Of a stretch of DNA of 64,000 nucleotides, positions 6,406 to 62,525 are shown one piece after another. The DNA lies in the sequence record NC_101842.1; one strand, written 5' to 3'. The translations under genes were made by a program, and so were the position numbers. Positions within the stretch are counted from its first letter, which is position 1; each line of letters starts with the position of its first letter. The DNA comes from a phage. The notes below the pieces were generated by a model. The model ran no database searches. It was not told where the DNA came from and worked only from the letters and a program-made list of their open reading frames with translations.

Positions 6406-7731
6406 ATGAGCAAAACCAAATTAGAACTCACCTGGATAGGTAAAAACGAGCGCAAAAAGCTAGAGCCGCACACTTTGTTAGAAGATTCGAGCAAGTCTTA
6501 CCACAGCCAGAAAGTGACCGAAAACGATATTTTTGATAATAAGCTGATTTTTGGAGATAACTTATTAGCATTGAAGGCGCTAGAGCAAGAGTATGCAGGC
6601 AAAGTGAAGTGTGTTTACATAGACCCACCATTCAATACCGGAAGGGCTTTTGAGCACTACGATGATAGTCTGGAGCATTCCATTTGGCTGGGCTTAATGA
6701 GGGATAGGTTAGAAATAATTCGTAATCTTCTGAGTGATGATGGGGTAATATTCGTTCACTTAGATGGTTGCGAAATGGCGTATTTAAAAGTTTTGATGGA
6801 CGAGATTTTTGGTCGTGCAAATCAGTTAAATACCATATCGATGACCACAAATTCCCCTTCGGGATTTAAGGCAACAGGAGCCACAGTTTTCTCCACAGCA
6901 AACTTTTTGCTTGTATATGCAAAAGATCGCAACCAGAAACCGCTTAACAAAATCTATATAACTAAAGGGTATGATACAGGATATAACAAATACCTATTAA
7001 ACCCGGATGACCATTATAAAAATTGGACGTGGTGCGGTATTGCCGATGCGTTTGCAAAGGCCAATGGCTATAAAGATGCAAAAGAAGCTAAGAAAAAACT
7101 GCCTGACACATTCGATGATGAATTAGCACAATTCGCAATTGATAATGCAGAACGTGTATTTCAATCTGTTGCAATTGGTGGTGGCGCTAAAATAAAGAGA
7201 AAAGAAACTATCGAGAAGTCAAAGAAAGATAGGGATAAGGTTTATGTACATCCGAATGAGGATGTTGAAGGATTTTATATCGCAAATGGTAGGCAAATGG
7301 TCTTTTACTCCAACAGGCTTTTGGAAATTGACGGTGAGATGCAACCTGCGGAACTAATAACTGATGTTTGGACAGACATTAGTTGGAATGGAATAGCAAA
7401 TGAAGGCGGCGTTAGTTTCAAAAATGGAAAAAAACCAGAAGCGCTTTTGAAGCGGATTCTCGAAATGTGTACGCGAGAAGGTGATTTGGTATTGGATTCA
7501 TTCGGCGGTTCGGGAACTACTGCTGCTGTAGCCCACAAGATGAAAAGACGTTGGATCTTGATCGAACTGGGTGATCATTGTCATACCCATATTATCCCTC
7601 GCTTGCAAAAAGTGATTGATGGTGAAGATCAAGGTGGTATTTCTAAGTCTGCAAGCTGGCAAGGTGGCGGTGGCTTCCGCTATTACAAACTTACCCAGAC
7701 CTTAATTACGAAAGATAATTCTGATCAATAA
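6406..7731 (+). CDS. DNA methyltransferase, N6-adenine/N4-cytosine family (DPPF motif), orphan
   Basis: Catalytic motif IV VYIDPPFNTG and AdoMet motif DSFGGSGTT; AAGGAG RBS; no restriction endonuclease partner seen. Confidence 0.8.
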   Translation: MSKTKLELTWIGKNERKKLEPHTLLEDSSKSYHSQKVTENDIFDNKLIFGDNLLALKALEQEYAGKVKCVYIDPPFNTGRAFEHYDDSLEHSIWLGLMRDRLEIIRNLLSDDGVIFVHLDGCEMAYLKVLMDEIFGRANQLNTISMTTNSPSGFKATGATVFSTANFLLVYAKDRNQKPLNKIYITKGYDTGYNKYLLNPDDHYKNWTWCGIADAFAKANGYKDAKEAKKKLPDTFDDELAQFAIDNAERVFQSVAIGGGAKIKRKETIEKSKKDRDKVYVHPNEDVEGFYIANGRQMVFYSNRLLEIDGEMQPAELITDVWTDISWNGIANEGGVSFKNGKKPEALLKRILEMCTREGDLVLDSFGGSGTTAAVAHKMKRRWILIELGDHCHTHIIPRLQKVIDGEDQGGISKSASWQGGGGFRYYKLTQTLITKDNSDQ

Positions 7732-7744
7732 AGAGTACAATCAA

Positions 7745-8050
7745 ATGATGAAACGTTATAAACCATACACTTTTGAAATCGATTTCGAACTTGACGATAT
7801 GTTTACTGTGGAAGCTCAGGCAGTTGTTCAGTTGCCAGATCCGGAGTGCCGGGATTCTGATGTTGACTGTTACGGATTTAGACAAATCACCGATGTGCAT
7901 GTTTACCACAACGGTGAAGAGGTGGACTTCCACCAACTGCCAAACGATATGCGCCACTCAATTTACAAACGTGCAGCCCGTGAACTAGAGTCCTATCTGG
8001 ATGCAGCGACGACAGCAGCTGCATTTGCTGAAGAAGTGGGAGGTTTCTGA
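7745..8050 (+). CDS. hypothetical protein
   Basis: ORF in compact same-strand array; weak RBS. Confidence 0.5.
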   Translation: MMKRYKPYTFEIDFELDDMFTVEAQAVVQLPDPECRDSDVDCYGFRQITDVHVYHNGEEVDFHQLPNDMRHSIYKRAARELESYLDAATTAAAFAEEVGGF

Positions 8051-8445
8051 TGATTACAGGTGTGAAGATTATCCAATACCACTTAACCAAATTGGAAGAT
8101 GCTGAAAAAGAGCTTGCAGAAGTTCTGAATAGTGGATATACTTTGCTATCATGCGCCTGCTCAGACACATACGCTGTGTGGACACTTATCCGGAAGGAAG
8201 AGCCTGCGGGGATCTTGGTGCCAAACCCTAAGATCATTAGTGAGATGGATGACTACGCTCAGGACGGCCTGCCAGAAGGCTGGGAAGTATGGGAAGGTGG
8301 TGAAAACCCTGCACCAGGTAAGTGGGTAAAATACAAACTGCGTAGTGGCGCACAGTACGCTGACTATTCTGATGACCTGGACTGGAGTCATTCTTCACCA
8401 GAATCATCTGCAAGTTCCTATGATATCATAGCTTTTAAGGAATAA
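8050..8445 (+). CDS. hypothetical protein
   Basis: GGAGG RBS; start overlaps upstream stop. Confidence 0.6.
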   Translation: MITGVKIIQYHLTKLEDAEKELAEVLNSGYTLLSCACSDTYAVWTLIRKEEPAGILVPNPKIISEMDDYAQDGLPEGWEVWEGGENPAPGKWVKYKLRSGAQYADYSDDLDWSHSSPESSASSYDIIAFKE

Positions 8446-8457
8446 GGAGAAGGTGGT

Positions 8458-8940
8458 ATGTCAGATTTTATGTGGAAAGTTGGTTATTCCTCTCCTGAAA
8501 TGTGTAAGGCCTGTTTTGTGAAAATAGGTCGCGAGGATATCGACAAAGTGATTCTTAAGTTTCGTGATGTGGCTGTAATCGGCAACCGAGTGCTTAAGCA
8601 CTTAAAGAATCTGAAGCTCACCAAAAAGAAGTTCTTTGGACTTTTCGAAGAGAAGGTTGATGCTTGGACCCATTGCATTCAGGAAGCTAAATCTCACTAC
8701 AGTGCTATCATTACCCCAGAACGGGTAGCCAAGATGGAAGGATTCATCAACAGCACAGAGTTTGAGTGCCTGAAAGCTGCACTTGATAGTTATCCGAAAT
8801 GCCTCAAGCACTTGGACAAGTATGTAGAAAAGGATGGGGAAATGTATCTAACCCTGGACGCATATTATGAGATGCAAGAAATTTTAAATTTAGATTTGAC
8901 ATTGGTATCCACCGAGTATACAATAGGTATCCGGGTTTAA
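8458..8940 (+). CDS. hypothetical protein
   Basis: AAGGAGAAGG RBS; followed by terminator. Confidence 0.6.
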   Translation: MSDFMWKVGYSSPEMCKACFVKIGREDIDKVILKFRDVAVIGNRVLKHLKNLKLTKKKFFGLFEEKVDAWTHCIQEAKSHYSAIITPERVAKMEGFINSTEFECLKAALDSYPKCLKHLDKYVEKDGEMYLTLDAYYEMQEILNLDLTLVSTEYTIGIRV

Positions 8941-8945
8941 CACTA

Positions 8946-8974
8946 GGCCCTGCCCGAAAGGGTGGGGCTTTTTG
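8946..8974 (+). terminator. rho-independent terminator (repeated element, copy 1)
   Basis: Stem CCCTGCCC-GAAA-GGGTGGGG (with G-U pairs) then CTTTTTG; same 20-nt hairpin recurs at ~19083. Confidence 0.6.
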
Positions 8975-8991
8975 CATTAGGAGACAGCAAA

Positions 8992-9756
8992 TTGAAATTC
9001 ATCTACAAAGAACACTACCACAAAGGTGTTGTGTGGAGTCTATTTGACGGGTCTGGTGGTGCAGTTATTGACTGGGCAAAAGCTGGGTACCTGTGCCTGT
9101 GCTTTAATGCAGAAGGTGCTGACCACGGCAGTTATGCAGAGGTGATAACCGATCATCCTAACATTCACTATGTGGATTATTGGATTGACCCATGGTTCCC
9201 TCAGGAAACTTTTTGCATGTATCCAGCTCCAGACTTTATTCTTGCATTTCCTCCGTGCACGCATTTAGCGGTATCAGGTGCTGCACATTTTAAGAAAAAG
9301 CTGGCTAAGGATCCTTTGATCCAAATTAATGCTGTAAAGGATGCTCGGGTTGCGGAAGAGCTGGGAGAGATTTACGATTGCCCGTGGCATGTAGAGAATC
9401 CTGTTGGTGTTATGTCCACACTGTGGCGCAAACCTGATTACCGTTTTCATCCTTCTGACTATGGCGGGTATTTACCGGAGGATGATGTAAACCCCTGGTT
9501 TCCTGAATTTATAGCTCCACGTGATGCCTATCCAAAAATAACTTGCGGCTGGATAGGTAATGGATTTATAATCCCGGCCACAAAACCTGTCCCGCAAATA
9601 GTTGACGCGGTTAGCGGGTATTCCATGCAACACGCCAAGCTGGGTGGGAAGAGTGCAAGAACGAAGATGATCCGAAGCCTCACACCACGTGGCTGGGCAA
9701 AAGCTGTATTCTTAGCAAACGAGCCTGTAGTAAGGAGCAGAATTAATGGGAAGTAA
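8992..9756 (+). CDS. putative DNA (cytosine-5) methyltransferase-like protein
   Basis: C5-MTase-like motifs: I SLFDGSGG, IV FPPCTHLAVSG (Pro-Cys), VI HVENPVG; probable TTG start at ~8992 after AGGAGA; assignment tentative. Confidence 0.5.
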   Translation: MKFIYKEHYHKGVVWSLFDGSGGAVIDWAKAGYLCLCFNAEGADHGSYAEVITDHPNIHYVDYWIDPWFPQETFCMYPAPDFILAFPPCTHLAVSGAAHFKKKLAKDPLIQINAVKDARVAEELGEIYDCPWHVENPVGVMSTLWRKPDYRFHPSDYGGYLPEDDVNPWFPEFIAPRDAYPKITCGWIGNGFIIPATKPVPQIVDAVSGYSMQHAKLGGKSARTKMIRSLTPRGWAKAVFLANEPVVRSRINGK

Positions 9757-11824
9757 ATTTATGGCATCTGCATACAACCGTTTCGGTGAGCCAAACCCGA
9801 AAGCAACTAAGTATAAAAGTGGGGGAAGTGTGAAACGAGACTATCGTGATGAAAAAGAAGTTGAAACTGTAGAGACTGTTTTAGAAAATACTAAAATTGT
9901 CCCTGTCCCACAACAAAATATCGGTCTGATGGCTGCACAATATTTTGGTGTGCGATCAGCATTGTCCCAAGAAGACGGTGTGACAGTCACTGCAACATAT
10001 TTCCCATATTACGACCGCTACGGAAATCTGTCCGGTTTCAAAAAGCGCGACTGGACGATTCCTAAAGAGCAAAGGGGCCATTTCTCCGTTGTTGGCATCG
10101 TAAAGGCTAACTCCCAGATGTTTGGTCAAAAGCTGTGTGCATCTTCCAACAACCGTAAGCAGATTAACGTTTGCGAGGGAGAAGGTGATGTTATTGCAGC
10201 ATGGCAGGCTGCATATCAGATACAAGTAAAAGGGATTCTCACCAACGCTAAAGCCCCGGCAAAGGTGAAGCAGTGGGCTAAAGAGGTACAGGACGGGATC
10301 GATGCAGTTATCAACGGTGGTGATCTGGCAGGAAAACCCTGCCTACCTTTTGTTGGAATTAACTGCGGATGTGCAAACGCAGTAGATACTTTTGCAAACA
10401 ATGAGAAGTTTATCCGTAGCTATGGAACAGTTGTGCTGGCAATGGATAACGATGCAGCTAACGAGGTAGAGAAGCAAAAACACGTCATTAAAGGTGTTGA
10501 GGCTACGCACAATATCGCAGCATTTTTGATGGCTGATAACGTTTACCACGTAGAGTACCCTGGTGAAGTAAACGATCCTGACGGTGTAAAAGATATCCGT
10601 GACATGCTGAAGGCTAAAAAGCTGGAAGATATTGTAAACATGTTCCGGCATCCTGTTAAGTATGTACCGGATGCTGTATCGGATTTAGAAGACTTCTCTA
10701 TCGAATCTTTGCGGAAAAAGACTTCCAACGGGGTAGATATCAGCGCAGAGTTCCCAAAACTGCAAAAAATGCTAAAAGGCTTGCACAAAGGGACACTCGT
10801 AATGCTTACAGGTCCATCAGGAGGCGGTAAAACAACTGTAGCTAAAAAACTGGAACACTGTATTGCAAGATACCTAATGGACCCGACATGTCCAAAGGCT
10901 GATGATTACGAAGAGGATGATCGTCTATGCATGATTCATCTTGAGGAGGACCCAGAGGAAGCAATTAACTCCTTGTATGCAAACCAGTTAGGGTTTGATG
11001 TTAAAGAGTTTGTTGAAGATCCTAGCCAGTTTTTAACTGATCAAGAACACGCAGAGATTCACCAATCATGGGCAAAAGCTGGAAAAATCAAAGTGTTCAA
11101 ACATTTCGGGTCTATTCCAGTGGACGAGTTGATTACCAAGCTTAAGCAAATGGTTTGCCTGTACCATTGTCGTTATATTGTGCTGGATCACCTGTCCATG
11201 GTAATTTCAGGGCTTAATGTTAAGGATGAGCGAAAAGAACTGGACATGGCTATGACCCAACTGGCTGCGTTTTGTAAGCAGTTTAACGTGTTTATCTTGG
11301 TGATCGCTCACCTCAAACGTACAGAGATTGTGCCCCCTAAGGACAAGGATGGTAACCCATTACCTTTCTGGTATCCTGTGCGAAAAGAGAATTTGCGAGG
11401 ATCGGCTGGGCTTGAACAGTTGAGTTGGGTAGTCATAGGTGTCGAGGCCGAAGAAATGGTGGATCGTTCTCGTGGACGTGTCCGTCTGGTAGGTCTTAAA
11501 AACCGTCCAGCAAAAACTTTAGGTATTGCTGACACTTTAGTTATGGATCCGCATACAGGTAAGTTCCATGATGCCAGTAATTGGTACTGGGACAAAGAAA
11601 TGCAGATGTTTACAGACGGAGAAGGTGGGGAGGTTGTTTGGAGACCTCAGGCTATGTTTGAGGATCAGGAGCATGCAGTTGTAGAAACACCTATGGGCAA
11701 GGTTGTGGCTGATAAGGTTGTAACACCCACTGTCAAGCCTATTGACACGCAGGAAGACCTCCAATACGATGATCCATCCTCTGATCCGGTCCCTGGTTTT
11801 GAGGATGATGAAACACCTTTTTAA
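9746..11824 (+). CDS. bifunctional DNA primase-helicase
   Basis: TOPRIM-like VCEGEGDVIAAW and MDNDAANE; Walker A GPSGGGKTT, Walker B IVLDHL; acidic C-terminal tail ...FEDDETPF; AAGGAG RBS. Confidence 0.8.
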   Translation: MGSKFMASAYNRFGEPNPKATKYKSGGSVKRDYRDEKEVETVETVLENTKIVPVPQQNIGLMAAQYFGVRSALSQEDGVTVTATYFPYYDRYGNLSGFKKRDWTIPKEQRGHFSVVGIVKANSQMFGQKLCASSNNRKQINVCEGEGDVIAAWQAAYQIQVKGILTNAKAPAKVKQWAKEVQDGIDAVINGGDLAGKPCLPFVGINCGCANAVDTFANNEKFIRSYGTVVLAMDNDAANEVEKQKHVIKGVEATHNIAAFLMADNVYHVEYPGEVNDPDGVKDIRDMLKAKKLEDIVNMFRHPVKYVPDAVSDLEDFSIESLRKKTSNGVDISAEFPKLQKMLKGLHKGTLVMLTGPSGGGKTTVAKKLEHCIARYLMDPTCPKADDYEEDDRLCMIHLEEDPEEAINSLYANQLGFDVKEFVEDPSQFLTDQEHAEIHQSWAKAGKIKVFKHFGSIPVDELITKLKQMVCLYHCRYIVLDHLSMVISGLNVKDERKELDMAMTQLAAFCKQFNVFILVIAHLKRTEIVPPKDKDGNPLPFWYPVRKENLRGSAGLEQLSWVVIGVEAEEMVDRSRGRVRLVGLKNRPAKTLGIADTLVMDPHTGKFHDASNWYWDKEMQMFTDGEGGEVVWRPQAMFEDQEHAVVETPMGKVVADKVVTPTVKPIDTQEDLQYDDPSSDPVPGFEDDETPF

Positions 11825-11882
11825 TGTTTAACAAAGAGTGGGAGGGGTAGTACAACCGCCTCCCCTTTAAGGAGAACTGTAT

Positions 11883-14660
11883 ATGAGCATGTGGTCGTTC
11901 GACTTTGAGTCATCCGGTTTGCTGGAAGATCCAGATCTTTATTATCACTGCGGCCTGTTTAAAGAGCTGAATAAGAACCGTTTTATGCTGTTCCTTCCTC
12001 TAAATGACCGCACACACTACTCCGAAGAGGATATAGAGAAGGCTAAGAACTTTATTCTGGCAAAGAAAACTCTTCATAAAGATTTTGAAGTTCGCATAGC
12101 AGATTTTTCGGAGTTGGAAGGTTGGCTTACAGGCAATTCCGACTGGTCACCAACAGCTTTGAACTGCCATAACTGCTACAGTTATGACTTTATGCTGATA
12201 GAAAGATTATCCGGTATTCATTTTGATATGTTCCGTGATCCTAAATGCATGGGGACTATCAACGACCACCAGGTTAACCTGTTTGATACGTTGGCGATGA
12301 GCAGAATCTTGTGGCCTGATCGCCCTTTACCAAAAGGTTGTCCGGACTCTGTATTCAACCCGGTTACTAAGAAAATGCAGCCTGTTGGTCCTCACGGCCT
12401 TATGGCATGGGGCTACGCCCTTGGTAACCAGAAAGTTCAAATTGATGACTGGCGCGATCTTCCGTTGTGGAAGTATGTGGATCGTGTATTCGAGGACGTT
12501 ATCATCCAGGAGCTGCTCTGGAAAGAGCTGGTAGCGGAATCAAAAGGTGTATTCTACGGCAAATCTGACATGCAGAACTTTATGTACGATCCAGCCAAAG
12601 AGAAGCCGAAAGGGTTCAAGAAAATCACCTGGAAGAACGCATTACGCCGAGGCATGCTGCAGCACTTCCTGATGGAGCTGCAGGCCCGTCAGGGTGTGTA
12701 TTTCGACATAGATGGGGCTATTGCTTTACGTGACCGTTGCGATGCGTGGATGAAAGAGATCGCTGATCGTGTTGAACCTCAACTTCCTTTAAAAGAGTTG
12801 TCAATGTCTCAGCGGCCCAAGTTCCCTGAAAAGCCGTTTAACCAAGATGGGACAATCTCCAATAATGGTTGGAAATGGTTAAAAGATAAGCTTGGCTATC
12901 CTGTAGACATGAGCGCTTTAGAATTCAAAGCCCCGCCTAAGCGAGCATTTACCTCCACAGGAGATGTCAGCAAGATGGGGATAAAATGGTGCGAAGAGAT
13001 GGGCTGCAAAGACCCCGACAAGATGGCTGATTTCTTGAGAGGTTATATTAAGGGCACCTCCACACCACAACCTTTACCTAAAGAGCTGATGGATCAGGCA
13101 ATAAGTGATCTGCAGCAGAAGCGAATGCCTGACTGCAAGATACCTATGAAAATCAGCAATCAGGACGACATTAAGCGATACCTGATCAGTGCTGGTTGGC
13201 TTCCGACAATGTGGAGAACTAAGGATGTAACTAAGGACAGCAAGAAGAAAGCTCTACCTGATGCAGATGTTGATGCACGAGTATATGCATACATGGACGA
13301 GCTTTTAGAGTCAGAGTATTGTGACCTAATTATCAACTTCTGGAACAAAACTGATGCTAAGTTTCAGACAACAGTGCACAAGTTCCGAAGCTTTCCTAAC
13401 TCCGAAAGGATTAAAAAGGAAGTGTTCGGGAAAATACGCAGAAAAGCCAGGGCACTTATTACTTCTCCGCAACTGAAAGATACGTTTGGACACCTATGTC
13501 CGAATCTTGAAAAATTGAACGGAGAGATGGCTAAAGATATCGTCTTGTGGTTATCATTGCGAAACCGCAGATCGGTCCTTGATCCAATCAAGGAGGATAA
13601 GGTTGATACTGGTCTTCTTAATCACCCACGTTTGAAGATTGACCATAAGCTTCCTGCTAAAAGCTCTGGATTAACAAACACTTCCCGACAGAAACACAGT
13701 ATTTGTGCAAACATGCCTAAACCATCTCCTAAAGTGGTTATGGGTAAAGAGATGCGTAGCTTGTGGGGTGTTCCTCCTGGATACTTTGAGATCGGTATTG
13801 ACGGGTCCAACTTAGAGCAGCTTATCGGGGCTTGGGGTGCCTTTGAGTTCGACAACGGCTTGTACTATGATGTTGTAAGTAACGGGGACGCACACCAAAA
13901 CAATGCTGAGGCATATACAAAAGTAGCAGGCAGAGAGGTGTCTCGTAACGACGGTAAACCTATCACGTATGGGGTTATGTACGGGGCACAAAAAGATAAA
14001 GTTGCAGATATGCTGGATATCTCCCCAGAGTTGGGGCAAAGGGTGATCGATGCACTTTGGGATGCCAACCCCGGTCTTAAGGGGCGCAAAGAGGATCTGG
14101 AGAAATTCTGGGAAGCAACAGGTAAGAAGTTTATCTACTCTTTTGATGGTCATGCTATCTGGACCCGATCTAAACACTCTTTACTTAATGCATACCAACA
14201 AAATGGTGGTGCATCGCTGTGTGACTTAGTTGGGATACTCATGCACCACCAAATGGTGAAGCGTGGGTGGTACGATGAAGGTGTCCGTCGTATTATCTAT
14301 TACCATGACGAATATCAGCTTCAAGTGCCTGACACACCGAAGTATAAGACTGTGTACACCTTCGACACAATTGAAGAACTGGAAGCATTTAAGGCAGAGC
14401 AGGAAGCCAAACTTCATGTGTTCGACGGTCATAAGTACAAAAAGGCACGCAAGGATGAGGACGGAAACGAAGTGGTTGACAGAGACGGAAACACGGTGTA
14501 CGATCCTATCCTGAACGATGACGGAAAGCTTGAACTTATCTGGAGCCCTGTGGGTGAAATGGTGGTGCATTGCTTCTGGCAAGCTTCTAAAATGATGGGA
14601 GTCCCGTTCCAGATCACAGGTGAATACTTGTGTGGTCGTAACTGGGGTGATTGTCACTAA
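11883..14660 (+). CDS. DNA polymerase, family A, with N-terminal 3'-5' exonuclease motifs
   Basis: Exo I FDFESSG; pol motif A-like EIGIDGSNLEQL; motif B R...K...YGVMYG; motif C YYHDEY. Confidence 0.85.
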   Translation: MSMWSFDFESSGLLEDPDLYYHCGLFKELNKNRFMLFLPLNDRTHYSEEDIEKAKNFILAKKTLHKDFEVRIADFSELEGWLTGNSDWSPTALNCHNCYSYDFMLIERLSGIHFDMFRDPKCMGTINDHQVNLFDTLAMSRILWPDRPLPKGCPDSVFNPVTKKMQPVGPHGLMAWGYALGNQKVQIDDWRDLPLWKYVDRVFEDVIIQELLWKELVAESKGVFYGKSDMQNFMYDPAKEKPKGFKKITWKNALRRGMLQHFLMELQARQGVYFDIDGAIALRDRCDAWMKEIADRVEPQLPLKELSMSQRPKFPEKPFNQDGTISNNGWKWLKDKLGYPVDMSALEFKAPPKRAFTSTGDVSKMGIKWCEEMGCKDPDKMADFLRGYIKGTSTPQPLPKELMDQAISDLQQKRMPDCKIPMKISNQDDIKRYLISAGWLPTMWRTKDVTKDSKKKALPDADVDARVYAYMDELLESEYCDLIINFWNKTDAKFQTTVHKFRSFPNSERIKKEVFGKIRRKARALITSPQLKDTFGHLCPNLEKLNGEMAKDIVLWLSLRNRRSVLDPIKEDKVDTGLLNHPRLKIDHKLPAKSSGLTNTSRQKHSICANMPKPSPKVVMGKEMRSLWGVPPGYFEIGIDGSNLEQLIGAWGAFEFDNGLYYDVVSNGDAHQNNAEAYTKVAGREVSRNDGKPITYGVMYGAQKDKVADMLDISPELGQRVIDALWDANPGLKGRKEDLEKFWEATGKKFIYSFDGHAIWTRSKHSLLNAYQQNGGASLCDLVGILMHHQMVKRGWYDEGVRRIIYYHDEYQLQVPDTPKYKTVYTFDTIEELEAFKAEQEAKLHVFDGHKYKKARKDEDGNEVVDRDGNTVYDPILNDDGKLELIWSPVGEMVVHCFWQASKMMGVPFQITGEYLCGRNWGDCH

Positions 14661-14709
14661 TGTAAACTATCAGCACAGGGAGGTGCTGTTGAGCAAAGAG
14701 GAGACTTTT

Positions 14710-14994: not shown

Positions 14995-15218
14995 CGACTT
15001 TGGTTAAAGCTACCTTTGTAGAAGAAAAGATGACAGACCTGTCATTCTTTAAAGAAGGAAAGACCTACGAGGTTTATTACGATAAAGCTCGTGCAAACAA
15101 AATGATTAAAGACGAGGAAGGGGTTGCCTGGTATATCTCTCACCTGGCAAACGGTGAGTATCATATCTACGGAACCACTTTGCTTGCCAAGTTTGTAGTT
15201 GTTGAAGAGGACCTATGA
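14991..15218 (+). CDS. hypothetical protein (paralog family A, member 2)
   Basis: ATGA overlap; block KDEEGVAWYISHLANG. Confidence 0.6.
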   Translation: MTTLVKATFVEEKMTDLSFFKEGKTYEVYYDKARANKMIKDEEGVAWYISHLANGEYHIYGTTLLAKFVVVEEDL

Positions 15219-45748: not shown

Positions 45749-46282
45749 CTACAAATGGCAACTGAGGGTGTCAAGAAAATTATCCCGTTCTTTCTCAGAG
45801 TTTTCATGGGTGTAGCTGAAAAACATATCGAGAATAACCTTATTGATATATTCCAGCTCCTCTGTGTTCAGATGCTTAGCAGGATCTACAATGACATCCC
45901 AAATATCATACAGACCACACTCATGATACCCATAACGCCACTCAATTGTCAAGCTGAGCGGCAAATCTTTACCGTCACAAACAACCTTCCATCTACATAT
46001 GTTGGTATCTGGTCGTATCTGTGCACGGTACACCTGTACAAAATCCAATTTGAATTTGAGGTACTCGTCATACAATTTAAGCACAAAGCTCTCGATTTGT
46101 GGAGACACTTTTGCAGCAAACTGTGCGTATTTGTACTTGCACTGGATGATCTTTCTGCGTTTTGCAGTTAAATTTTTTGCCGCCAGTTGTTCTTCAGTGT
46201 ATCTCCACCTACGATCAACAAACGCAACAGGGTCTTTGTCCCCATAGAGGTCTTCCCAGTTAATCAGAAGCATACCTGTCAC
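45749..46282 (-). CDS. hypothetical protein
   Basis: ORF in array. Confidence 0.6.
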   Translation of the reverse strand: MTGMLLINWEDLYGDKDPVAFVDRRWRYTEEQLAAKNLTAKRRKIIQCKYKYAQFAAKVSPQIESFVLKLYDEYLKFKLDFVQVYRAQIRPDTNICRWKVVCDGKDLPLSLTIEWRYGYHECGLYDIWDVIVDPAKHLNTEELEYINKVILDMFFSYTHENSEKERDNFLDTLSCHL

Positions 46283-47225: not shown

Positions 47226-47540
47226 CTACCAGGTTACTGTCAAGTAGGCAACCGTATTATTTTTCTCTGGGGAGATGCCAACAACATCTACCTGCAGACC
47301 TCCTGCCCTTAAATCTCCAACAATGTGCGGGAAGTAATCTGAGAGATGCGATGGTAGATTTATCGAAAATCCGCACCCCAGAAAGCCTGCTAACGCTTTA
47401 TTTTGTATCTCCCCTACAATCGCATCATAAATAGAGTTAAGCTCGTCAGGAAGCGTTACAGGACGTTTTAGCGCTAACTGGTGTAATTTGTCCTTAGCAC
47501 TCATTTTCATTTCAGGTCTACCTCTGGAGGTGCCAACCAC
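47226..47540 (-). CDS. hypothetical protein
   Basis: ORF in array. Confidence 0.55.
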   Translation of the reverse strand: MVGTSRGRPEMKMSAKDKLHQLALKRPVTLPDELNSIYDAIVGEIQNKALAGFLGCGFSINLPSHLSDYFPHIVGDLRAGGLQVDVVGISPEKNNTVAYLTVTW

Positions 47541-48040
47541 ATAAATGGCGGCAAGTCTAAACGGTTTTTCTTATCCCAGACAAAATATGCATATGCTTGC
47601 CCGTCAGTTCTGCCATTTGATTGAAAAGATGGACGCTTAGATATTGTGATCACAGTGGTAGGTGCATTATCAAGCCACCATTCAAATCTGGCTTTGCTTT
47701 CCAGAAAATTAAGACGCAAAAGCATAATAACTACGTCAGCATCTTTCAACGCCTTGTCTACAAACTCACGAGCCAAACTGTATGGTGGGTTGGTGATAAT
47801 ACAGTCAACATGGTTGTATTCTGTATTCAGATAGTCAACACCTTCTTGGATTTCTCCCCATGCAGATCCTAACGGCATACGTGAGTAGAACACACCTGAG
47901 GCACTATTCCTGCAAGGCTCTAAATAGGTCCAGTCTTCTGGGAACGTAATAAGGTCATACAGCCCTTCTGCACACCACTCCGGTGTCACATACTCATCGT
48001 AAGCGTTACGTTGTTCATCAGGTTTTCTAGCACAAGTCAT
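47507..48040 (-). CDS. phage-type DNA N6-adenine methyltransferase (Dam-like, NPPY motif)
   Basis: Catalytic motif DCIITNPPY; N-terminal YVTPEWCAEG typical of small phage Dam-family MTases. Confidence 0.75.
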   Translation of the reverse strand: MTCARKPDEQRNAYDEYVTPEWCAEGLYDLITFPEDWTYLEPCRNSASGVFYSRMPLGSAWGEIQEGVDYLNTEYNHVDCIITNPPYSLAREFVDKALKDADVVIMLLRLNFLESKARFEWWLDNAPTTVITISKRPSFQSNGRTDGQAYAYFVWDKKNRLDLPPFMWLAPPEVDLK

Positions 48041-54132: not shown

Positions 54133-54407
54133 TTTTTCTCTCCAAAACCATTCTTAACAAAAGAGATGAAATCGTCGGCACCGCCTATATGGATACTGTC
54201 AAGATCGCTTTCTAAGAAGATCTGCGGCAACGTTCTGGGGACGATTGGACTACACTTCTCAATAAGCTCTTCTTTTGTGTATCCCTCGCCAAGTGTCTTA
54301 TATACAAAAGGCAGACCTTTGCTGATTGCAAATTCTTTTGCTCTGACACAATGTGGGCAGTTATCCTTACCGTAAATGATGATGAAAAAAGATTTTTCGC
54401 AGCTCAT
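54129..54407 (-). CDS. glutaredoxin-like protein
   Basis: CPHC active site in IIIYGKDNCPHCVRAKEF; sits between nrdD and nrdB. Confidence 0.8.
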   Translation of the reverse strand: MSCEKSFFIIIYGKDNCPHCVRAKEFAISKGLPFVYKTLGEGYTKEELIEKCSPIVPRTLPQIFLESDLDSIHIGGADDFISFVKNGFGEKK

Positions 54408-54410
54408 ATA

Positions 54411-55499: not shown

Positions 55500-55537
55500 T
55501 ATTCTACCTCTAAAATGGGGCCGAAGCCCCTTTAAAA

Positions 55538-57853
55538 TTATAGTGCACAGCTTTCGCAATACGGATCTTCAACTGAACTATCTGCAATCAAAGGATAGTT
55601 CTTTCTGGTTTCATCTTCAGCCTGTTTCTTGGCATGAAGTTCCTCTGCCAAGGAGTCACCAGCACCAACCCTAGAGTTTAAATAATACCATGTCTTCATC
55701 CCGAATTTAGTGGCACGGATAAGGTACCCTAGCTGCTCCTTCATTGAAATTTTACCATCTTTCAACTTGGTGTAGTCTATGTATAAATCCGCGCTGATTG
55801 CCTGACCTGTGAATTTTTGAATCACAGCATACATATCGATCATGTCGTTAGTATCAACGTCCCAAGCCGAAGTGTAATACTCTTTCAACTCATCGTATTC
55901 AGGAACGATAAACAGCACCTGCCCTTGTGGCGACTTTTTAAAGATAATGTGCTCACGGACAGGATAAACCCCGTTAGTGGTGTTTGTTGCCAGCGAAGAG
56001 CTTTCATTAGGCATATATGCTTCAAGAACGCTATTACGTAGCCCACCATTTTCAATGATTTCTTTACGTAACCCTTCCCAATCCTGTTTAAGAGAAGGAT
56101 CTTTCACCACACTATCGACCTCTTTGTTATAAGTGTCGATTGGTAACCAACCTTCTGGATATTTTGTTTTATACATCCACTCGCAGACACCACGCTCTTT
56201 TGCCAACCGTAAACTTGCCTTATGCAAGCTGTAGCTGTGAAGTTCTGCAAGATCGTGAACAAGCTGTTTACTTTCAGGAGATCCGTAAGTAACCTTGTGG
56301 CTGGCAATAAAATGTGCAACATTGGTAAGGCCAACCCCGATGGATCTGCGTTTTTTAACAGTACTCTCCATGTTTTCATACGGATATGTCATGATTTCCA
56401 TAACATTGTCAATCATAAGCACCGTGTAGTATGCAACATCCTCATACTCCTCTGGGGTAACCCTTCCAGCTACAAGAGATGACAGGAAGCACAATGCAAC
56501 CTCACCATCATCAACATCGTACTTGAAGATATTACGCATATCTGAATAGCCTTTTGTCGGGAGGGCTATTTCTGCACACAGGTTGCTTGAATAGATCACA
56601 TCTTTAAAAGGTGTATGTCTATTCATCTCATCTGTCCAGTATACGTACAGCCTTCCCACCTCAGTACGCTGCGTGATCAGCTCAACAGCAAGATCTCTAG
56701 CCCGGATCCATGTCTTAGGAATACTGTCATCTTTAGCAATACGCTCAACCTCTGCATCGAACTCCTCCATAGACATGGTGAAGATACCCTCATGCAGTTG
56801 AGGAGCGTGCTTATAAGAAACAAGCATCCAATCTAAATTCTTAGCCACACGGTTGATAAACGACCTATTAATACCGATGGAGTAGTCCATGGTGTTGATT
56901 CTTTTTGAAGCAACAGTCATAGGGTTTCTCAAACGGATTAGCTCATCAATCTGCGGGTCCAGTGCAAGGAATGATACTGTTGCAGAACCGCCACGTGATT
57001 GTTGTCTGTTCTCCTTAACACCAGCATCAATACCTCGATAATATGGAATCTTACCCATGTGTTTAATAGTGTTACCGCGAACACCATCACCTGCAGATCT
57101 TGATGATAAATAGTAGCCGATACCTGCTTGGTTAACCGTCATTGTGTACGCAACTTCACGTGCCACACCAATAGATTTTGCTGTATCGTCAGCTTTTATT
57201 ACACAACAAGATGCATACCCTGTCTTACCTGTGCGCAGCCCGTTTAAGTACGGTGTCGGGGCATTGATCTTTAAGTCGGACAGATAAGTGTATAATTTTA
57301 CAACATCGTTGATACGACGTTCTTTCGGCATATTCTTCATGACAGCCATTGCTATCCCCATAAACATCATCTGGGGAGATTCAAACAAGGTGTCTTTAAG
57401 AGTATCCTTGATCCCGTATTTGTCGCGAAACTGTTTAAGGACTGCATAGCCATAACCGAGATCTTTACTGTGGTCAATAACAGCGTCTAAAGTGTTTAGC
57501 TCGGTAAAGCTATATCCCATATCCTCCCAATACCCTTTCTCAACCATGTCGTTGTAAAATGATGGTAAGGAAGGGATCTTTGTAAACCCTCCAAAAGCCT
57601 CTTTATAAATCTGACCAATAAGAACACGACCAGCCATACGGGAATGTGCTTCGTCTTTACGGCTAACACAGGAGTCTATGATAGCTTGGTTAACTTCTTT
57701 GGTTGTACATCCATCATACAGTCGTTTGTATGCATCCAGTGCAATATGTGACCAATTGCCGTTACCGTCGTCACCGAAAATAGCTGCCTTATTTAAACGT
57801 TCTGGATCGAATGCCACTTCACATCCGTTGCTTTTAATTACCTTGGTGATCAA
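55538..57853 (-). CDS. nrdA: ribonucleotide reductase class Ia alpha subunit
   Basis: Catalytic NLCAEI block; C-terminal CESC pair; 771 aa. Confidence 0.9.
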   Translation of the reverse strand: MITKVIKSNGCEVAFDPERLNKAAIFGDDGNGNWSHIALDAYKRLYDGCTTKEVNQAIIDSCVSRKDEAHSRMAGRVLIGQIYKEAFGGFTKIPSLPSFYNDMVEKGYWEDMGYSFTELNTLDAVIDHSKDLGYGYAVLKQFRDKYGIKDTLKDTLFESPQMMFMGIAMAVMKNMPKERRINDVVKLYTYLSDLKINAPTPYLNGLRTGKTGYASCCVIKADDTAKSIGVAREVAYTMTVNQAGIGYYLSSRSAGDGVRGNTIKHMGKIPYYRGIDAGVKENRQQSRGGSATVSFLALDPQIDELIRLRNPMTVASKRINTMDYSIGINRSFINRVAKNLDWMLVSYKHAPQLHEGIFTMSMEEFDAEVERIAKDDSIPKTWIRARDLAVELITQRTEVGRLYVYWTDEMNRHTPFKDVIYSSNLCAEIALPTKGYSDMRNIFKYDVDDGEVALCFLSSLVAGRVTPEEYEDVAYYTVLMIDNVMEIMTYPYENMESTVKKRRSIGVGLTNVAHFIASHKVTYGSPESKQLVHDLAELHSYSLHKASLRLAKERGVCEWMYKTKYPEGWLPIDTYNKEVDSVVKDPSLKQDWEGLRKEIIENGGLRNSVLEAYMPNESSSLATNTTNGVYPVREHIIFKKSPQGQVLFIVPEYDELKEYYTSAWDVDTNDMIDMYAVIQKFTGQAISADLYIDYTKLKDGKISMKEQLGYLIRATKFGMKTWYYLNSRVGAGDSLAEELHAKKQAEDETRKNYPLIADSSVEDPYCESCAL

Positions 57854-58080
57854 TTTGCTTCCTCCACTTCATCAACGTATTTATCAAGGCAGGTATCAGT
57901 ATCTTGCTGGATAAAGGTATCCTCTTCTACAGAGATATTTATAATTTTGCCTGTATACTCGTCATAATAAACATCATCATACATTTTAATATCGTTTGTC
58001 AGGCCGTTGAACCAAAGCCAACCAACATACTCTGACCGACTTGCAAAACCAAGATCCTTCCACTTGGAGTTATGACTCAT
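57850..58080 (-). CDS. hypothetical protein
   Basis: Internal ATG (MSHNSKWKDLGF); track ORF trimmed. Confidence 0.5.
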   Translation of the reverse strand: MSHNSKWKDLGFASRSEYVGWLWFNGLTNDIKMYDDVYYDEYTGKIINISVEEDTFIQQDTDTCLDKYVDEVEEAN

Positions 58081-58090
58081 CTTCACCACC

Positions 58091-58552
58091 TTAGCTTTCA
58101 ATACCGAATAATTTTTCCAGGCGATGCAGATCTTCAAAATTGAAAGGTTCATCAACAATATGAATATCTTCAGCCTTTTCAGATTGTTTTGTATACTTTC
58201 TTACATTAACACGATCCTCTACAGGAATATCATACGGAAGATCTTGAACAAGCATTGCCTCACCAGGTGCTTTATCCACATCTAAAATATCTACACCGTT
58301 ATACATTTGCGGGTATCTAAAGTCTGCACGCATGACACCAGCAAATACATCTGCCTTTCGATAATGTGTTGGCTTATTTTTGCATCGAACGTTTTTTCCA
58401 CGAAGAACATCAATACTTTTTAAATCAAACCCTACGGCAAAGAGTGCAGCTCGGAGACCGTTTCGTGTGCGAACGTTAAACCCGGGAACGGTAGATAGGA
58501 AATCCAAAGTAACTGAAATAAATGTCTTTTTAGGAATCATAACATTACTCAT
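58091..58552 (-). CDS. hypothetical protein
   Basis: Internal ATG (MSNVMIPKK) after GGAGA; between nrdA and ThyX-like gene. Confidence 0.5.
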   Translation of the reverse strand: MSNVMIPKKTFISVTLDFLSTVPGFNVRTRNGLRAALFAVGFDLKSIDVLRGKNVRCKNKPTHYRKADVFAGVMRADFRYPQMYNGVDILDVDKAPGEAMLVQDLPYDIPVEDRVNVRKYTKQSEKAEDIHIVDEPFNFEDLHRLEKLFGIES

Positions 58553-58650
58553 ATCTGTCTCCATTTCTGGCTCACCAACAAAGTGAGCCATTATTATAGA
58601 TTATCTAATACTATTAGTCAACACAAAAGTTACCTATCGCTGTGATAGGA

Positions 58651-59634
58651 TTAACCTTTCACGAAGTGGTTATTAAGCAGTTGTCTGTGCTGAACCCACC
58701 CACAAAAGTTGGCAGACCAGAATTTACCATCACGGTCTTGATGGGTTACACCTTCCTGCCAAGTACTGATGTCTTGTGTGATTTCACATGAAGACAGGTA
58801 GTAGTTTAAACGTTCCATTGCGTTATCGTGATCCATAGGTGTTGCCTGGTGCTCGTAAGGGCTTGCATGAATACGATCCCCACCAATCAATTTTTTAGCC
58901 ACACTGTCTGCCTTTTCAAACGTGCTGTCAATATTTCGATAAGATACTTGTGCACAGCAACTAGCACTGATAGACAGAGCTTCTTTAGTATCGAGAATGC
59001 AGAGCTTTCCTTCTGTGTCACGTACAGCGTAGTTAAACTCCCCGTCCAAATAAACGTGCTCTACATATGGAGTGTGCCATTGACCCGGTTTAAGGATTTC
59101 AGGAGTGCTATTCACAAGAGCCTCCCACATACAATTAGCTAACATCTGAATCGTAGGATCCGCATCGTGCCAGCAACGGAGGTGGAAAAAATTATTCCAC
59201 TCGGTGCTTGTTACAACTGTTTTCATGCGCTGAAAAGGCTCCACTAAGCGGTTACATACTTGCTTATGGTAACCAGCAAGGGCAAACTTCTCTGCATGCC
59301 AAGCGGCGTTTTTTGCAGCTTCTTTCCAAAACTCTTCCGGAGTTAGCTCCATATCAGTGTACTCTACACGGATCTTTTGATCGTGTTCCCCACCATCTTC
59401 CATTCCTCGCTTATTTACACCGAAGCGAACTGGCATTGCCGGATTCTCCACAATCTGTTGCAGCATCTTTCCGACAGGCACTGCACGGGAAGACATGGCG
59501 TTTCGGCTGAACACTCGGTGCGTCATAAGCTCTGAGTGAATAATTCGAGGATACTCTAGCTCAAAAGTGGTGATGCGCTTACCTTTCTCGGAAATGCTGT
59601 CAGCAATGATCTTTGCAGTGCACAGTTTTAGCAT
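58651..59634 (-). CDS. thyX: flavin-dependent thymidylate synthase (ThyX-like)
   Basis: ThyX-like signature HRVFSRNAMSSRA; nucleotide-metabolism context; longer than typical ThyX. Confidence 0.6.
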   Translation of the reverse strand: MLKLCTAKIIADSISEKGKRITTFELEYPRIIHSELMTHRVFSRNAMSSRAVPVGKMLQQIVENPAMPVRFGVNKRGMEDGGEHDQKIRVEYTDMELTPEEFWKEAAKNAAWHAEKFALAGYHKQVCNRLVEPFQRMKTVVTSTEWNNFFHLRCWHDADPTIQMLANCMWEALVNSTPEILKPGQWHTPYVEHVYLDGEFNYAVRDTEGKLCILDTKEALSISASCCAQVSYRNIDSTFEKADSVAKKLIGGDRIHASPYEHQATPMDHDNAMERLNYYLSSCEITQDISTWQEGVTHQDRDGKFWSANFCGWVQHRQLLNNHFVKG

Positions 59635-59834
59635 TATTTAGCTCTCCTTGTTTTAATTTTGGAAATTTCGTCTGGGTTTATGTTGGCCTTAAATGCAAGG
59701 TATCTGTTGAACATATCGGAGCACATGTCTTGGGTGATCCTGGAGGCATACACCAGCTTACCTCCCAGATCATACACCTCTAGCCAGTCACCGTATCTGA
59801 CTACAGGATCGCCACCTTTAGAACATCTGCCCAT
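59634..59834 (-). CDS. hypothetical protein
   Basis: Start/stop overlap. Confidence 0.55.
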   Translation of the reverse strand: MGRCSKGGDPVVRYGDWLEVYDLGGKLVYASRITQDMCSDMFNRYLAFKANINPDEISKIKTRRAK

Positions 59835-59835
59835 T

Positions 59836-60429
59836 TCAAATACCTTCTAAAAACTTTCCTATTTTATACCAGCTATTAGCGGTATAGTCAACACTGACCT
59901 TTAACTCCTCAAATTGCTCATAAGGCGTATCTTTTAGGATTTTAATAACTTCAGGGCGTGAAGCGAATTGGTTCAGGTATTCATGCCTGTCGTCAATTAT
60001 AACATCTACAGCCACATTTCCCTTGAAATGCGTGGCGTAGAAGCCGTGACCCTGGGTGTGATCGTCCAGATCCATAAAATCACTAGTCCAACGCTTTAAG
60101 AACCTTGATTTAGATGCAAGGTGACCTTTCTTGCATACCGAGATAAATGCAAGCTTGTGACCACGAGCCACCAAATCTTTCATAACCTCAATAGCCCCCT
60201 CTTCAGGCTTAAGAAAGTCGTAGAGGAACGGGTCACTCCAGAAATCAAAAGGCCCTATGATGTTTTCTTTGGGGCGATCAGGCCAATACTTTGACAGATC
60301 GTAATACATTAACCCATTAGAAGGTTTAGTGACTGTCTTACTGGCTGGACCATATAAACGCTCCAACCACTCCCACCATGCTGTTCCTGAATCTACCAGT
60401 GTCAAATCTACATCAATACCGATTAACAT
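59836..60429 (-). CDS. HAD-superfamily 5'(3')-deoxyribonucleotidase-like protein
   Basis: HAD motif I IGIDVDLTLVDS (DxDxT). Confidence 0.55.
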   Translation of the reverse strand: MLIGIDVDLTLVDSGTAWWEWLERLYGPASKTVTKPSNGLMYYDLSKYWPDRPKENIIGPFDFWSDPFLYDFLKPEEGAIEVMKDLVARGHKLAFISVCKKGHLASKSRFLKRWTSDFMDLDDHTQGHGFYATHFKGNVAVDVIIDDRHEYLNQFASRPEVIKILKDTPYEQFEELKVSVDYTANSWYKIGKFLEGI

Positions 60430-61040
60430 TCTTCTTGGGCCTCTTTAGCATCAATATACTTGCACACAATCTCCGATGCACATTCCCAAGGTGCACCTTC
60501 AGGGTTTACAACATCGAACTCAATTCCTTTTATTCCGTTCTTTTCCAGACTTAGATAGGTTCTGGAATCATTTCCCCAGTCATATCCGACACGGTGAATA
60601 CGGAACAACAACAGATCTCCACCTGTGCTGTACGCGTACTCGCTAAGGCATGCCAGCTCCTCTTTGAATCCACCATCGGAGTAAACAACAACCCCTTTAC
60701 CTTTAGGGAAATCTTTCTTCAAAGATGCGACTGCGGCTTTACCGAAAGCATCTTCACCAAAGATAGGTTTAATCAGATTTTCACTACAATGGATCATCCA
60801 TTCTCGCGGAGAAACATGCTTGCCGTCTATCATTAAGAAAGGGCAAGGCTCTTCTTTGTAGTGGCGGTCATAAAGTGCATTCCAGAGTTGAGGAGTTACA
60901 CCAGCTGCCTTAATTGCCACACTGAAGAGCATCTCCTTAACCTCACGGTGGTGTGAGTTAGGAATAGCTTCCAACAAGAGATCTGCAATGTGATCCTTAC
61001 CACTGCTGGGTGGGGCGTTAAGAACAATAATATCCATCAA
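60423..61040 (-). CDS. P-loop kinase, putative deoxynucleoside monophosphate kinase
   Basis: N-terminal P-loop LNAPPSSGKD resembling T4 gp1-type dNMP kinases. Confidence 0.5.
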   Translation of the reverse strand: MMDIIVLNAPPSSGKDHIADLLLEAIPNSHHREVKEMLFSVAIKAAGVTPQLWNALYDRHYKEEPCPFLMIDGKHVSPREWMIHCSENLIKPIFGEDAFGKAAVASLKKDFPKGKGVVVYSDGGFKEELACLSEYAYSTGGDLLLFRIHRVGYDWGNDSRTYLSLEKNGIKGIEFDVVNPEGAPWECASEIVCKYIDAKEAQEEC

Positions 61041-61240
61041 AAACCTCCGTGGTATTCTTCAACTGCATCAATAATACTTTTACACTTATCTACCAGCTCG
61101 TTAGCCACTACAGCATCGTCTTCCCAAACAGCTTCCTCGATCTGATCAAGCAATGATCGCATCTTACCCATCATTTCTGGGATAAAGTCTTCTGAAAAGC
61201 TGTCTGGAATTGTTAACTTTAGTGTCATTGCGTTCTCCAA
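61037..61240 (-). CDS. hypothetical protein
   Basis: ATGA overlap. Confidence 0.55.
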   Translation of the reverse strand: MENAMTLKLTIPDSFSEDFIPEMMGKMRSLLDQIEEAVWEDDAVVANELVDKCKSIIDAVEEYHGGF

Positions 61241-61255
61241 TCATACTATGCGTTA

Positions 61256-61714
61256 TTAGAAGTTTGTTTTTACACGTCCCTTTTCATCAACCTCGTTGTT
61301 GGCTAGAAGCGTTACAAAGTCTGTGAAACGGACATGAAGAACTCTTTTCTTATCAAGGTATCCTAAAGCCACCCCTGAGAAATTTAGCATCAAAGGGGCT
61401 AAAGAAGCTCTGGCACTGAAATGCTGTTGTTCTACCCTTCCAACACCCTTAGTGTAGGATGGGTTAAGATTGTAAGTTCTGAATCCCAGTTTTGTTGGAG
61501 CTTTAGAATTAAAAACAACTTTATAGCGTTTCTTACTCAACTTATGCTCCAGGATAAGCATTCCCTTATCACCCTTGATAAGTTGAAAATCTGTAAAGTG
61601 CTCTTTTAATACGAAAGGTAGTGCCAGTCCCATCGCCTGCCCCCTTTGTACCGCTGTCTCACCAAAAGCTTTTGCATCAGTAAGTTCTTTGGTCAAGTCT
61701 ATGCTTTTGATCAT
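61256..61714 (-). CDS. hypothetical protein
   Basis: ORF in array. Confidence 0.55.
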   Translation of the reverse strand: MIKSIDLTKELTDAKAFGETAVQRGQAMGLALPFVLKEHFTDFQLIKGDKGMLILEHKLSKKRYKVVFNSKAPTKLGFRTYNLNPSYTKGVGRVEQQHFSARASLAPLMLNFSGVALGYLDKKRVLHVRFTDFVTLLANNEVDEKGRVKTNF

Positions 61715-62525
61715 ACCTAGTCTCCAAAATGTATTGTAGTTCTTTCTTACCTATACTCTTCATTCCGGCAGTCTTACCTGCTTCTTCTTGAAAAGAAGAA
61801 TAGCATTCAGCAAACACTCTGTCAACACCGTCAACTAAAGATTTTATGAAATATGTTGATTCTTCAGATTTTGGGTCATCCTCCCCCAATACTTTTCCAG
61901 CATTATACCCAACACGTCTTACACAGAAGTCGTAGTCATCTGGAGTGCTAAAAGAAAATAACTTATTCTCCCCAATCTCTACAGGATCCCTGTTGCACGC
62001 CTTTTTCTCCCAAATTTGGAAAACACACGGCACGTCATAAGGTTTGCCATTAAGTAGAAACGAGTTCTTAGGGCACCTTTCACTGTAGACAAGGTGCATC
62101 GACATGTCCAGTTTGTTTGCAAAAAATATTTTTTCAAATGTCCGTGGCAAGATGAAGGCTATAGCCCCTCCAAGCTCTAGCAATGATGCACAATGGTTAA
62201 AGAATTTGCAAGCTAAAGATGAATTCTTGCCAAATGGTGGGTTACCTATGAAGACATCTGCCTTGGGATGCACCTCCAAGAAGTTTGCCTGAATGCACGG
62301 TGTTGGTCCTTCAAATTCAGGATCTGGTACTAGATCGTAAGACAGTATCTCTGAAAATAGTTTTGAAAAAGAACCCCTTCCAGCAGAAGGCTCAACGTAT
62401 GCACAATTTCCATACTTATCTTTTACTTTACCAACAAGATATTCTGCATACTCAGGGTTTGTGTAATATTTGTCGTTGGACTCTTTCTTGCTCAAAGTGC
62501 CTCCAAAAGGAAAAGGGAGGCGCAA
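61677..62525 (-). CDS. DNA N6-adenine methyltransferase (NPPF motif)
   Basis: Motif I EPSAGRGSF and motif IV FIGNPPFG; N-terminal KYYTNPEYAEYL. Confidence 0.75.
   Translation of the reverse strand: MRLPFPFGGTLSKKESNDKYYTNPEYAEYLVGKVKDKYGNCAYVEPSAGRGSFSKLFSEILSYDLVPDPEFEGPTPCIQANFLEVHPKADVFIGNPPFGKNSSLACKFFNHCASLLELGGAIAFILPRTFEKIFFANKLDMSMHLVYSERCPKNSFLLNGKPYDVPCVFQIWEKKACNRDPVEIGENKLFSFSTPDDYDFCVRRVGYNAGKVLGEDDPKSEESTYFIKSLVDGVDRVFAECYSSFQEEAGKTAGMKSIGKKELQYILETRYDQKHRLDQRTY

Follow-up and report, generated by a model that had tools for sequence, protein, structure and literature searches.

Four stand-alone DNA methyltransferase genes in a Vequintavirus: likely target sites, benefit and cost

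Why should a phage carry four DNA methyltransferase (MTase) genes of different classes and no restriction partner for any of them? This question is raised by sequence record NC_101842.1, of which a stretch of 64,000 nucleotides (hereafter, the window) contains four MTase-like open reading frames (ORFs), here called ORFs A to D, between positions 6406 and 62525. An initial annotation of this DNA had suggested layered self-methylation to evade several host restriction-modification (RM) systems. Our analysis points to a narrower answer, which we consider likely: a Vequintavirus with four stand-alone MTases methylates its own DNA, gains narrow masking of particular sites, and pays by exposure to host retrons.

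According to this explanation, the replication and nucleotide-metabolism modules would supply the four MTases, which would act on newly synthesized phage DNA. Virtually every GATC would receive N6-methyladenine (m6A) from ORF C, and virtually every GTAC from a second enzyme that works independently of ORF C; both marks have been shown in a sister phage, the former with a near-identical enzyme. The writer of GTAC may well be ORF D, a TaqI/BseCI-like two-domain enzyme of the gamma class. ORF B would write 5-methylcytosine (5mC), probably at CCWGG, as a 54%-identical relative does in T1-like phages, whereas ORF A, presumably captured from enterobacterial plasmid RM systems, would methylate one strand of a short asymmetric site.

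Four orphan methyltransferase genes

The window was assigned by megablast to a Vequintavirus (rV5-like E. coli myovirus), with 99.8-100% identity to BASEL phages; a search of phage genomes with two parts of the window returned ~121 Vequintavirus records at 90-100% identity. The best matches were CarlMeissner (Bas48) and phage nimi for the 5-12 kb part (99.8%), and MaxTheCat (Bas57) for the 46-50 kb part (100%). The deposited annotation of Bas48 spans the entire window and labels bas48_0070, bas48_0176 and bas48_0198 as 'putative N6 adenine methyltransferase' and bas48_0074 as 'Dcm-like C5 cytosine methyltransferase'. The gene set is already known: dozens of public genomes in GenBank name all four members as MTases, and in the case of ORF C and of the ORF B family experiments add to the annotation. 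With the genes annotated and two of the marks already measured, the set itself carries little weight as a discovery. What is added here is the identification of ORF C with a published GATC enzyme, together with the agreement between published methylation counts and genomic site counts; a specific candidate gene, ORF D, for published GTAC methylation; and the recognition of ORF A as an apparently captured, shortened Type III mod allele that is variably present in the genus.

All four ORFs were confirmed at their coordinates, each with its named motif, and a scan of the 185 ORFs of at least 70 amino acids (aa) for amino-MTase and C5-MTase motifs yielded exactly four credible MTases. An additional DPPF in a 94-aa ORF overlapping an annotated holin was discarded as a chance match. 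No restriction-endonuclease domain was found in ten flanking proteins by Pfam and PHROGs scans, and the annotations list no restriction endonuclease anywhere in the window or in the sister genomes. The four genes are orphans; none has the adjoining cognate endonuclease that would make it part of an RM system. The initial annotation, which had listed four MTase-like genes of different classes without a restriction partner, was right on both points, and its class assignments were essentially right as well. It had also proposed profile searches to assign the classes, and these were decisive for ORF A, which lies above the PF01555 cut-off. ORFs B, C and D have strong PHROGs family matches, yet they fall under every Pfam and NCBIfam cut-off; single-sequence searches of the PDB with these three ORFs gave no significant match, and their family profiles gave marginal matches only.

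All four genes are also carried by Bas51 (phage WalterGehring, MZ501111), whose enzymes are 96.6-99.6% identical to those of the window. The ratios of nonsynonymous to synonymous substitution rates (dN/dS) between the window and Bas51 are 0.12 for ORF A, 0.011 for ORF B, 0.019 for ORF C and 0.036 for ORF D, which indicates purifying selection on all four genes and very strong selection on the last three. ORF A was found in ~86 phage records (at least 90% identity) and each of the others in ~116-120, a distribution that marks ORFs B, C and D as core genes of the genus.

Methylation of GATC and GTAC

ORF C (47507-48040, minus strand) encodes a minimal adenine MTase of 177 aa with NPPY at residue 84 and belongs to phrog_799 (1.7e-66). 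In a published study of Bas51, every escaper from two environmental retrons was mutated in an 'N6 adenine methyltransferase', and the engineered substitutions D69G, D79G and T83P in this enzyme abolished retron triggering (PLoS Biol 2025, PMC12548924). Among the four MTases of the window, only ORF C has D69, D79 and T83 together. It is identical to bas51_0176 at 175 of 177 residues, including these three, and the differences from this enzyme of a separate phage isolate are T32P and V174A. By this comparison, ORF C is the orthologue of the published Bas51 GATC enzyme.

Native nanopore sequencing of Bas51, in which 6mA was the only modification called and GATC and GTAC were the motifs quantified, detected m6A at GATC that was nearly gone in the T83P mutant; in the source data, methylated GATC adenines number 1405 for the wild type and 35 for T83P (PMC12548924). 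The Bas51 genome contains 703 GATC sites, or 1406 adenines, matching the 1405 called, and only 2.5% of them are still methylated in T83P. Since 1405 of 1406 adenines are methylated in the wild type and 35 in the mutant, the phage enzyme methylates practically all sites, leaving a negligible share of the methylation of virion DNA to host Dam. The description of ORF C as a phage Dam-like enzyme therefore stands with respect to GATC methylation, as made by its orthologue, but not with respect to curated family membership: its scores are below the cut-offs of the phage Dam family PF05869 (19.2 bits against 28.1) and of TIGR01712 (16 against 97), and no E. coli/T4-type Dam family was found among its profile matches. 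Like ORF C, bas51_0176 is a minimal 177-aa gamma-like enzyme outside the E. coli/T4 Dam family. In another member of the Vequintavirinae, Pectobacterium phage CB7, Dam-like and cytosine MTases have been described, and a ClaI digest supports Dam-type methylation.

Two neighbors of ORF C deserve mention. A 'putative glycosidase' gene at about 45749-46273 (minus strand) has bas51_0171 as its orthologue, and the initial 30 nucleotides (nt) of bas51_0171 occur exactly in the window; a premature stop at R87 of bas51_0171 aids escape from Retron-Asa1, which suggests a second retron-trigger gene ~1.2 kb from ORF C. The other, at 47226-47540 (minus strand; 104 aa), belongs to phrog_12158, a family with a function-less label. 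Its longest form shares 34 nt with the 3' end of ORF C, and with the start deposited for sister phages the overlap is 4 nt, consistent with translational coupling.

Could the methylation serve mainly the phage's own DNA transactions, such as marking replicated DNA, avoiding MutH cuts at unmethylated GATC, timing of expression or packaging? Such roles are known for host Dam and phage P1 Dam. The MTase genes do lie in replication and nucleotide-metabolism modules, three of them are core genes under very strong purifying selection, and GATC is abundant and not avoided in the window (334 sites; observed-to-expected ratio [O/E] 1.00), its near-complete methylation being the work of the phage enzyme and not of host Dam. 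However, the D69G, D79G and T83P mutants of Bas51 are viable and plate like the wild type on retron-free hosts (PMC12548924), so that GATC methylation is non-essential in the laboratory. We regard such a primary role as unlikely and prefer self-methylation with narrow site masking.

The same source data contain the second mark. Methylated GTAC adenines number 509 in the wild type and 511 in T83P, and the m6A calls classed as 'other' number 576 and 349, respectively (PMC12548924). The Bas51 genome has 258 GTAC sites, or 516 adenines, of which ~99% are methylated, on both strands. Because the GTAC calls are alike in the two phages, this methylation is independent of ORF C. The absence of m6A from virion DNA, which the initial annotation had named as evidence against its proposal, was thus not seen in this sister phage. 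Our search of the literature on GTAC methylation or digest phenotypes in rV5-like phages returned the Bas51 dataset only. Assignment of the mark by elimination, which would need Bas51 to lack ORF A or ORF D, was ruled out by the presence of all four genes in Bas51.

The Bas51 paper links the GTAC mark to no gene; the strongest candidate for its writer is ORF D (61677-62495, minus strand; 272 aa; phrog_5172, 2.5e-129). The initial annotation had called it an NPPF adenine MTase at 61677-62525; the motif and the DNA adenine MTase fold hold, but the start at 62495 (TTG with GGAGG upstream) is better than that at 62525, and residues 1-14 of the 282-aa long form are disordered in the structural model. 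Curated profiles do not capture the protein (Eco57I family PF07669, 15.5 bits against a cut-off of 25.3; no NCBIfam match), and its family profile gave a marginal match to M.TaqI (E value 0.06). Its motif order, EPSAGxG (motif I) followed by NPPF at residue 95, is that of the gamma class, and only DNA adenine MTases match it structurally across both domains (230-254 of 282 residues). With motif I before NPPF and superposing catalytic and C-terminal domains, ORF D is a gamma-class DNA N6-adenine MTase. It shares these features with M.TaqI, M.BseCI and CamA, although it is far shorter than the latter two. As a lead only, M.HpyAXII, which makes GTm6AC, is likewise small and TaqI-like with a catalytic Asn near position 87.

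Alternatively, ORF A could write GTAC, with ORF D acting as an RNA m6A methyltransferase (METTL5/TrmN-like) or on some other substrate. We doubt this division of labor. Each match spanning both domains of ORF D modifies DNA adenine, and the known GTm6AC enzyme M.HpyAXII, gamma-class and with its Asn at 87, is like ORF D in these respects, though this is no more than a lead. The nearest relatives of ORF A are Res-paired Mods of the Type III group, in which methylation is confined to one strand of a short asymmetric site. Since GTAC is methylated on both strands at ~99%, ORF D would be the likelier GTAC enzyme, as judged from its fold and from the asymmetric site expected of a Mod.

GTAC is also scarce. 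There are 127 sites in the window against 192 expected (O/E 0.66; z -6.0) and 258 in Bas51 against 441 expected (O/E 0.59; z -11.2), where it is the most depleted of six palindromes scored, beyond CTAG. As for a restriction partner of bacterial ORF D homologues, a 199-aa gene lies 10 nt downstream of the homologue in Poseidonibacter, and its product showed no similarity to PDB sequences or Pfam families, including R.PabI; two other contexts looked like large viral contigs or like unclassified ones. On plasmids, the homologues of ORF D carry no annotation beyond that of hypothetical proteins. Next to ORF D, a DnaQ-like exonuclease (62542-63531, minus strand) carries a C-terminal zinc ribbon with sub-threshold matches to many zinc-ribbon families; among them, the match to the restriction-alleviation protein Lar (PF14354; E value 0.004) most likely reflects generic zinc-ribbon similarity.

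The Dcm-like enzyme and the Type III Mod relative

ORF B (8992-9756, plus strand; 254 aa) encodes a compact DNMT3-like C5-cytosine MTase ('Dcm-like') and matches phrog_757 (5e-87). Its frame is open from 8962, and the TTG at 8992 with AGGAG upstream is a better start than the GTG at 8962. The initial annotation had reported FDGSGG, Pro-Cys and ENP motifs in this protein and had feared that they would dissolve on proper alignment. The opposite was found: in 42 homologues P87-P88-C89, E135-N136-P137 and K182 are invariant, and F18, G20, S21 and G22 are nearly so. ORF B itself has no match to PF00145 at E value ≤1, and six of the 42 homologues match this profile (best E value 1.3e-6). An AlphaFold2 model (mean predicted local distance difference test score 90.3) was used for a Foldseek search, the top hits of which were the catalytic domains of DNMT3A/3B (E value ~2e-6) and a prophage C5 MTase (3g7u), with probability 1.0 but template modeling scores of only ~0.45-0.5. 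On the basis of motifs I, IV and VI and the modeled fold, ORF B is a C5-MTase.

What such an enzyme does is known from a relative. Retron Ec86 is triggered by a 711-bp 'Dcm-like' gene of T1-like phage K42, the product of which places 5mC on Ec86 multicopy single-stranded DNA, as shown by liquid chromatography-mass spectrometry; its key residues are C82, E128, K175 and K176, and it superposes on DNMT3A (bioRxiv 10.1101/2023.08.16.553469). In phage egaa (Hanrivervirus), a 236-aa orthologue carries all four residues and shares 54% identity with ORF B (E value 4e-86), with C82, E128 and K175 aligned to C89, E135 and K182 of ORF B. The small DNMT3-like fold of ORF B is that of DNMT3A/3B and of the Dcm-like MTase of K42/KarlJaspers (Drexlerviridae); it differs in having Ile at the position equivalent to K176 of K42 Dcm. 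The family counts 1503 phage records. By sequence, then, ORF B belongs to an experimentally supported 5mC MTase family, from which its own activity may be predicted, and by analogy its target is probably CCWGG, with 139 sites in the window. Transfer of a group other than methyl, as by a phage carboxymethyltransferase, was set aside because 5mC was obtained with the K42 member of the family.

ORF A (6406-7731, plus strand; 441 aa) had been read as a DPPF-type N6-adenine or N4-cytosine MTase. It is a beta-class N6/N4 DNA MTase of the N6-adenine type, with a match to PF01555 (1.5e-42; 146.5 bits against a cut-off of 26.7) over profile positions 1-216 of 221 and the motif order DPPF (residues 73-76) followed by FGGSGT (~366-371). 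The best sequence matches in the PDB are the Type III Mod 6k0w (4e-29) and the EcoP15I Mod 4zcf (2e-24). In Salmonella IncFIB plasmids (e.g., NZ_CP117699.1), a 562-aa homologue is directly followed by a 912-aa protein with the Type III Res domain PF04851, and this Mod-Res pair forms a complete Type III system. Aligned over its full length, ORF A shares 59% identity with the plasmid Mod, unevenly distributed (95% at residues 1-60, 79% at 61-135, 30% at 136-300 and 77% at 346-437), and it stops ~129 aa before the end of that protein. Conserved ends and a divergent center are characteristic of mod alleles with exchanged target-recognition domains, and the comparison marks ORF A as a Type III Mod allele that has been shortened and whose recognition domain has been swapped. 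The beta-class catalytic core and the variable center are shared with the EcoP15I and Salmonella plasmid Mods, whereas ORF A has no Res partner and is only 441 aa long, compared to 562-644 aa. Its homology to Res-paired Mods is accompanied by neither an adjacent res gene nor a full-length Mod, and the genes downstream (101, 131 and 160 aa) have no nuclease or helicase domains. With no res nearby and the C-terminal region missing, ORF A is a Mod-derived orphan and not a Type III system.

At 7700-7760, right after the stop codon of ORF A, the out-of-frame translation '...LINKEYNQM...' resembles the continuation of the plasmid Mod, 'VINKEYNPEM'. The six residues INKEYN look like a remnant of the deleted or frameshifted C-terminus of an ancestral mod gene, although chance may also explain them. 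The following 101-aa ORF (7745-8050, plus strand) matches the C-terminal part of phrog_1573 ('DNA methyltransferase') at 2.4e-6 and has no Pfam match; it was rejected as the missing Mod C-terminus, being dissimilar to that region.

ORF A is cleanly absent from Bas57, in which the flanking genes are intact; together with its presence in ~86 records, this makes it an accessory cassette. The window itself is a mosaic. Its ORF A region is nearest to nimi and CarlMeissner (99.8%) and its ORF C region matches MaxTheCat, which has no ORF A, at 100% identity. These different nearest phages imply that co-circulating Vequintaviruses have recombined and that the ORF A cassette has moved.

It may be asked whether ORF A, as a captured Type III mod gene in decay, has lost its methylating activity. 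Besides the missing extension and the out-of-frame INKEYN, about one in three members of the genus lacks the gene, its dN/dS exceeds those of the other three by a factor of roughly 3-10, and two Type III systems do not consistently separate phages with it from phages without it. On the other hand, the full PF01555 profile and both catalytic motifs are intact, a dN/dS of 0.12 still means purifying selection, ~86 genomes carry an intact copy (92-100% identity), and the two Type III systems need not have the specificity of ORF A. Decay to inactivity is quite improbable in our view, and an active ORF A remains the preferred reading. Any product of ORF A would be expected among the 'other' m6A calls of Bas51.

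Restriction sensitivity and retron sensing

In the BASEL study, in which six RM systems were tested, the Vequintavirinae were described as 'exceptionally susceptible' to RM and as lacking 'any effective protection'. The raw plating data for the sister phages read (Bas50-59) give ~1e-4 to 1e-3 on EcoRI and values below detection on EcoRV, with or without ORF A. None of the targets of the six systems is GATC, GTAC or CCWGG. That these systems restrict the sister phages while reading other sites excludes a broad shield and leaves room for site-specific masking. Joint escape of four methylation layers from many host RM systems, for which four MTases of different classes without an endonuclease and two fully methylated motifs in sister virion DNA could be cited, is very improbable and, for the six systems tested, largely refuted, given this susceptibility and the fact that each MTase masks only its own short motif. 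The original idea of layered self-methylation therefore survives in part: GATC and GTAC are ~99-100% methylated in Bas51 virions, but broad evasion is contradicted by BASEL.

Narrow masking would be the most economical benefit of the phage MTases. It would act against MboI/DpnII-type enzymes at GATC, RsaI/KpnI/PabI-type enzymes at GTAC, EcoRII-type enzymes at CCWGG and one Type III specificity. The price is detection by host retrons, which the initial annotation had missed: MTases are signals by which retrons detect phage. The ORF C orthologue, toxic when produced on its own, sets off Retron-Asa1 and Retron-Squ1 (PMC12548924), and the ORF B family is sensed by Ec86; by analogy with these relatives, the same cost would fall on the phage of the window. 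The locus illustrates a trade-off in which MTases mask their own sites only, yet expose the phage to retron sensing.

Several points weigh against this explanation. The methylation data come from a sister phage, and the exact phage of the window is known from its sequence. The Bas51 data consist of 6mA calls only, so the activity of ORF B on phage DNA is extrapolated from its relatives, and the choice of ORF D for GTAC rests on fold architecture and on the asymmetric site expected of a Mod. Lacking the ~129 C-terminal residues present in full-length relatives, ORF A could have little activity or none. As the six RM systems read no GATC, GTAC or CCWGG, the anti-restriction benefit itself is deduced. 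Finally, GTAC is strongly avoided though fully methylated, which simple masking does not explain.

A bolder version, in which all four enzymes are active and the virion methylome has four layers, namely Gm6ATC (ORF C), GTm6AC (ORF D), 5mC (ORF B) and strand-asymmetric m6A (ORF A), is possible but doubtful. If it were true, ORF D would define a new family of small GTAC-specific gamma-class enzymes, widespread in phages and aquatic metagenomes; the motif of ORF A would be hidden within the 349 'other' m6A calls of Bas51 T83P; and avoidance of GTAC together with its ~99% methylation would point to a strong GTAC-reading defence in enterobacteria.

On the two Type III systems, sister Vequintaviruses differ in plating by many orders of magnitude (BASEL S1 Data, Bas49-Bas59). 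Bas51 plates at ~0.05 on EcoCFT_II and below detection on EcoP1, Bas56 and Bas57 at 0.1-0.6 on EcoP1, and Bas58 below detection on both. The presence of ORF A does not explain this spread: Bas50, Bas51 and Bas54, all with ORF A, differ among themselves, and Bas57, without it, tolerates EcoP1 best or among the best. No link between ORF A and Type III sensitivity was retained.

The database searches also returned 16-19 'Campylobacter phage' records (host Campylobacter jejuni; e.g., MG065635, unannotated) that are ~97% identical to E. coli Vequintaviruses and are probably mislabelled or contaminating coliphages.

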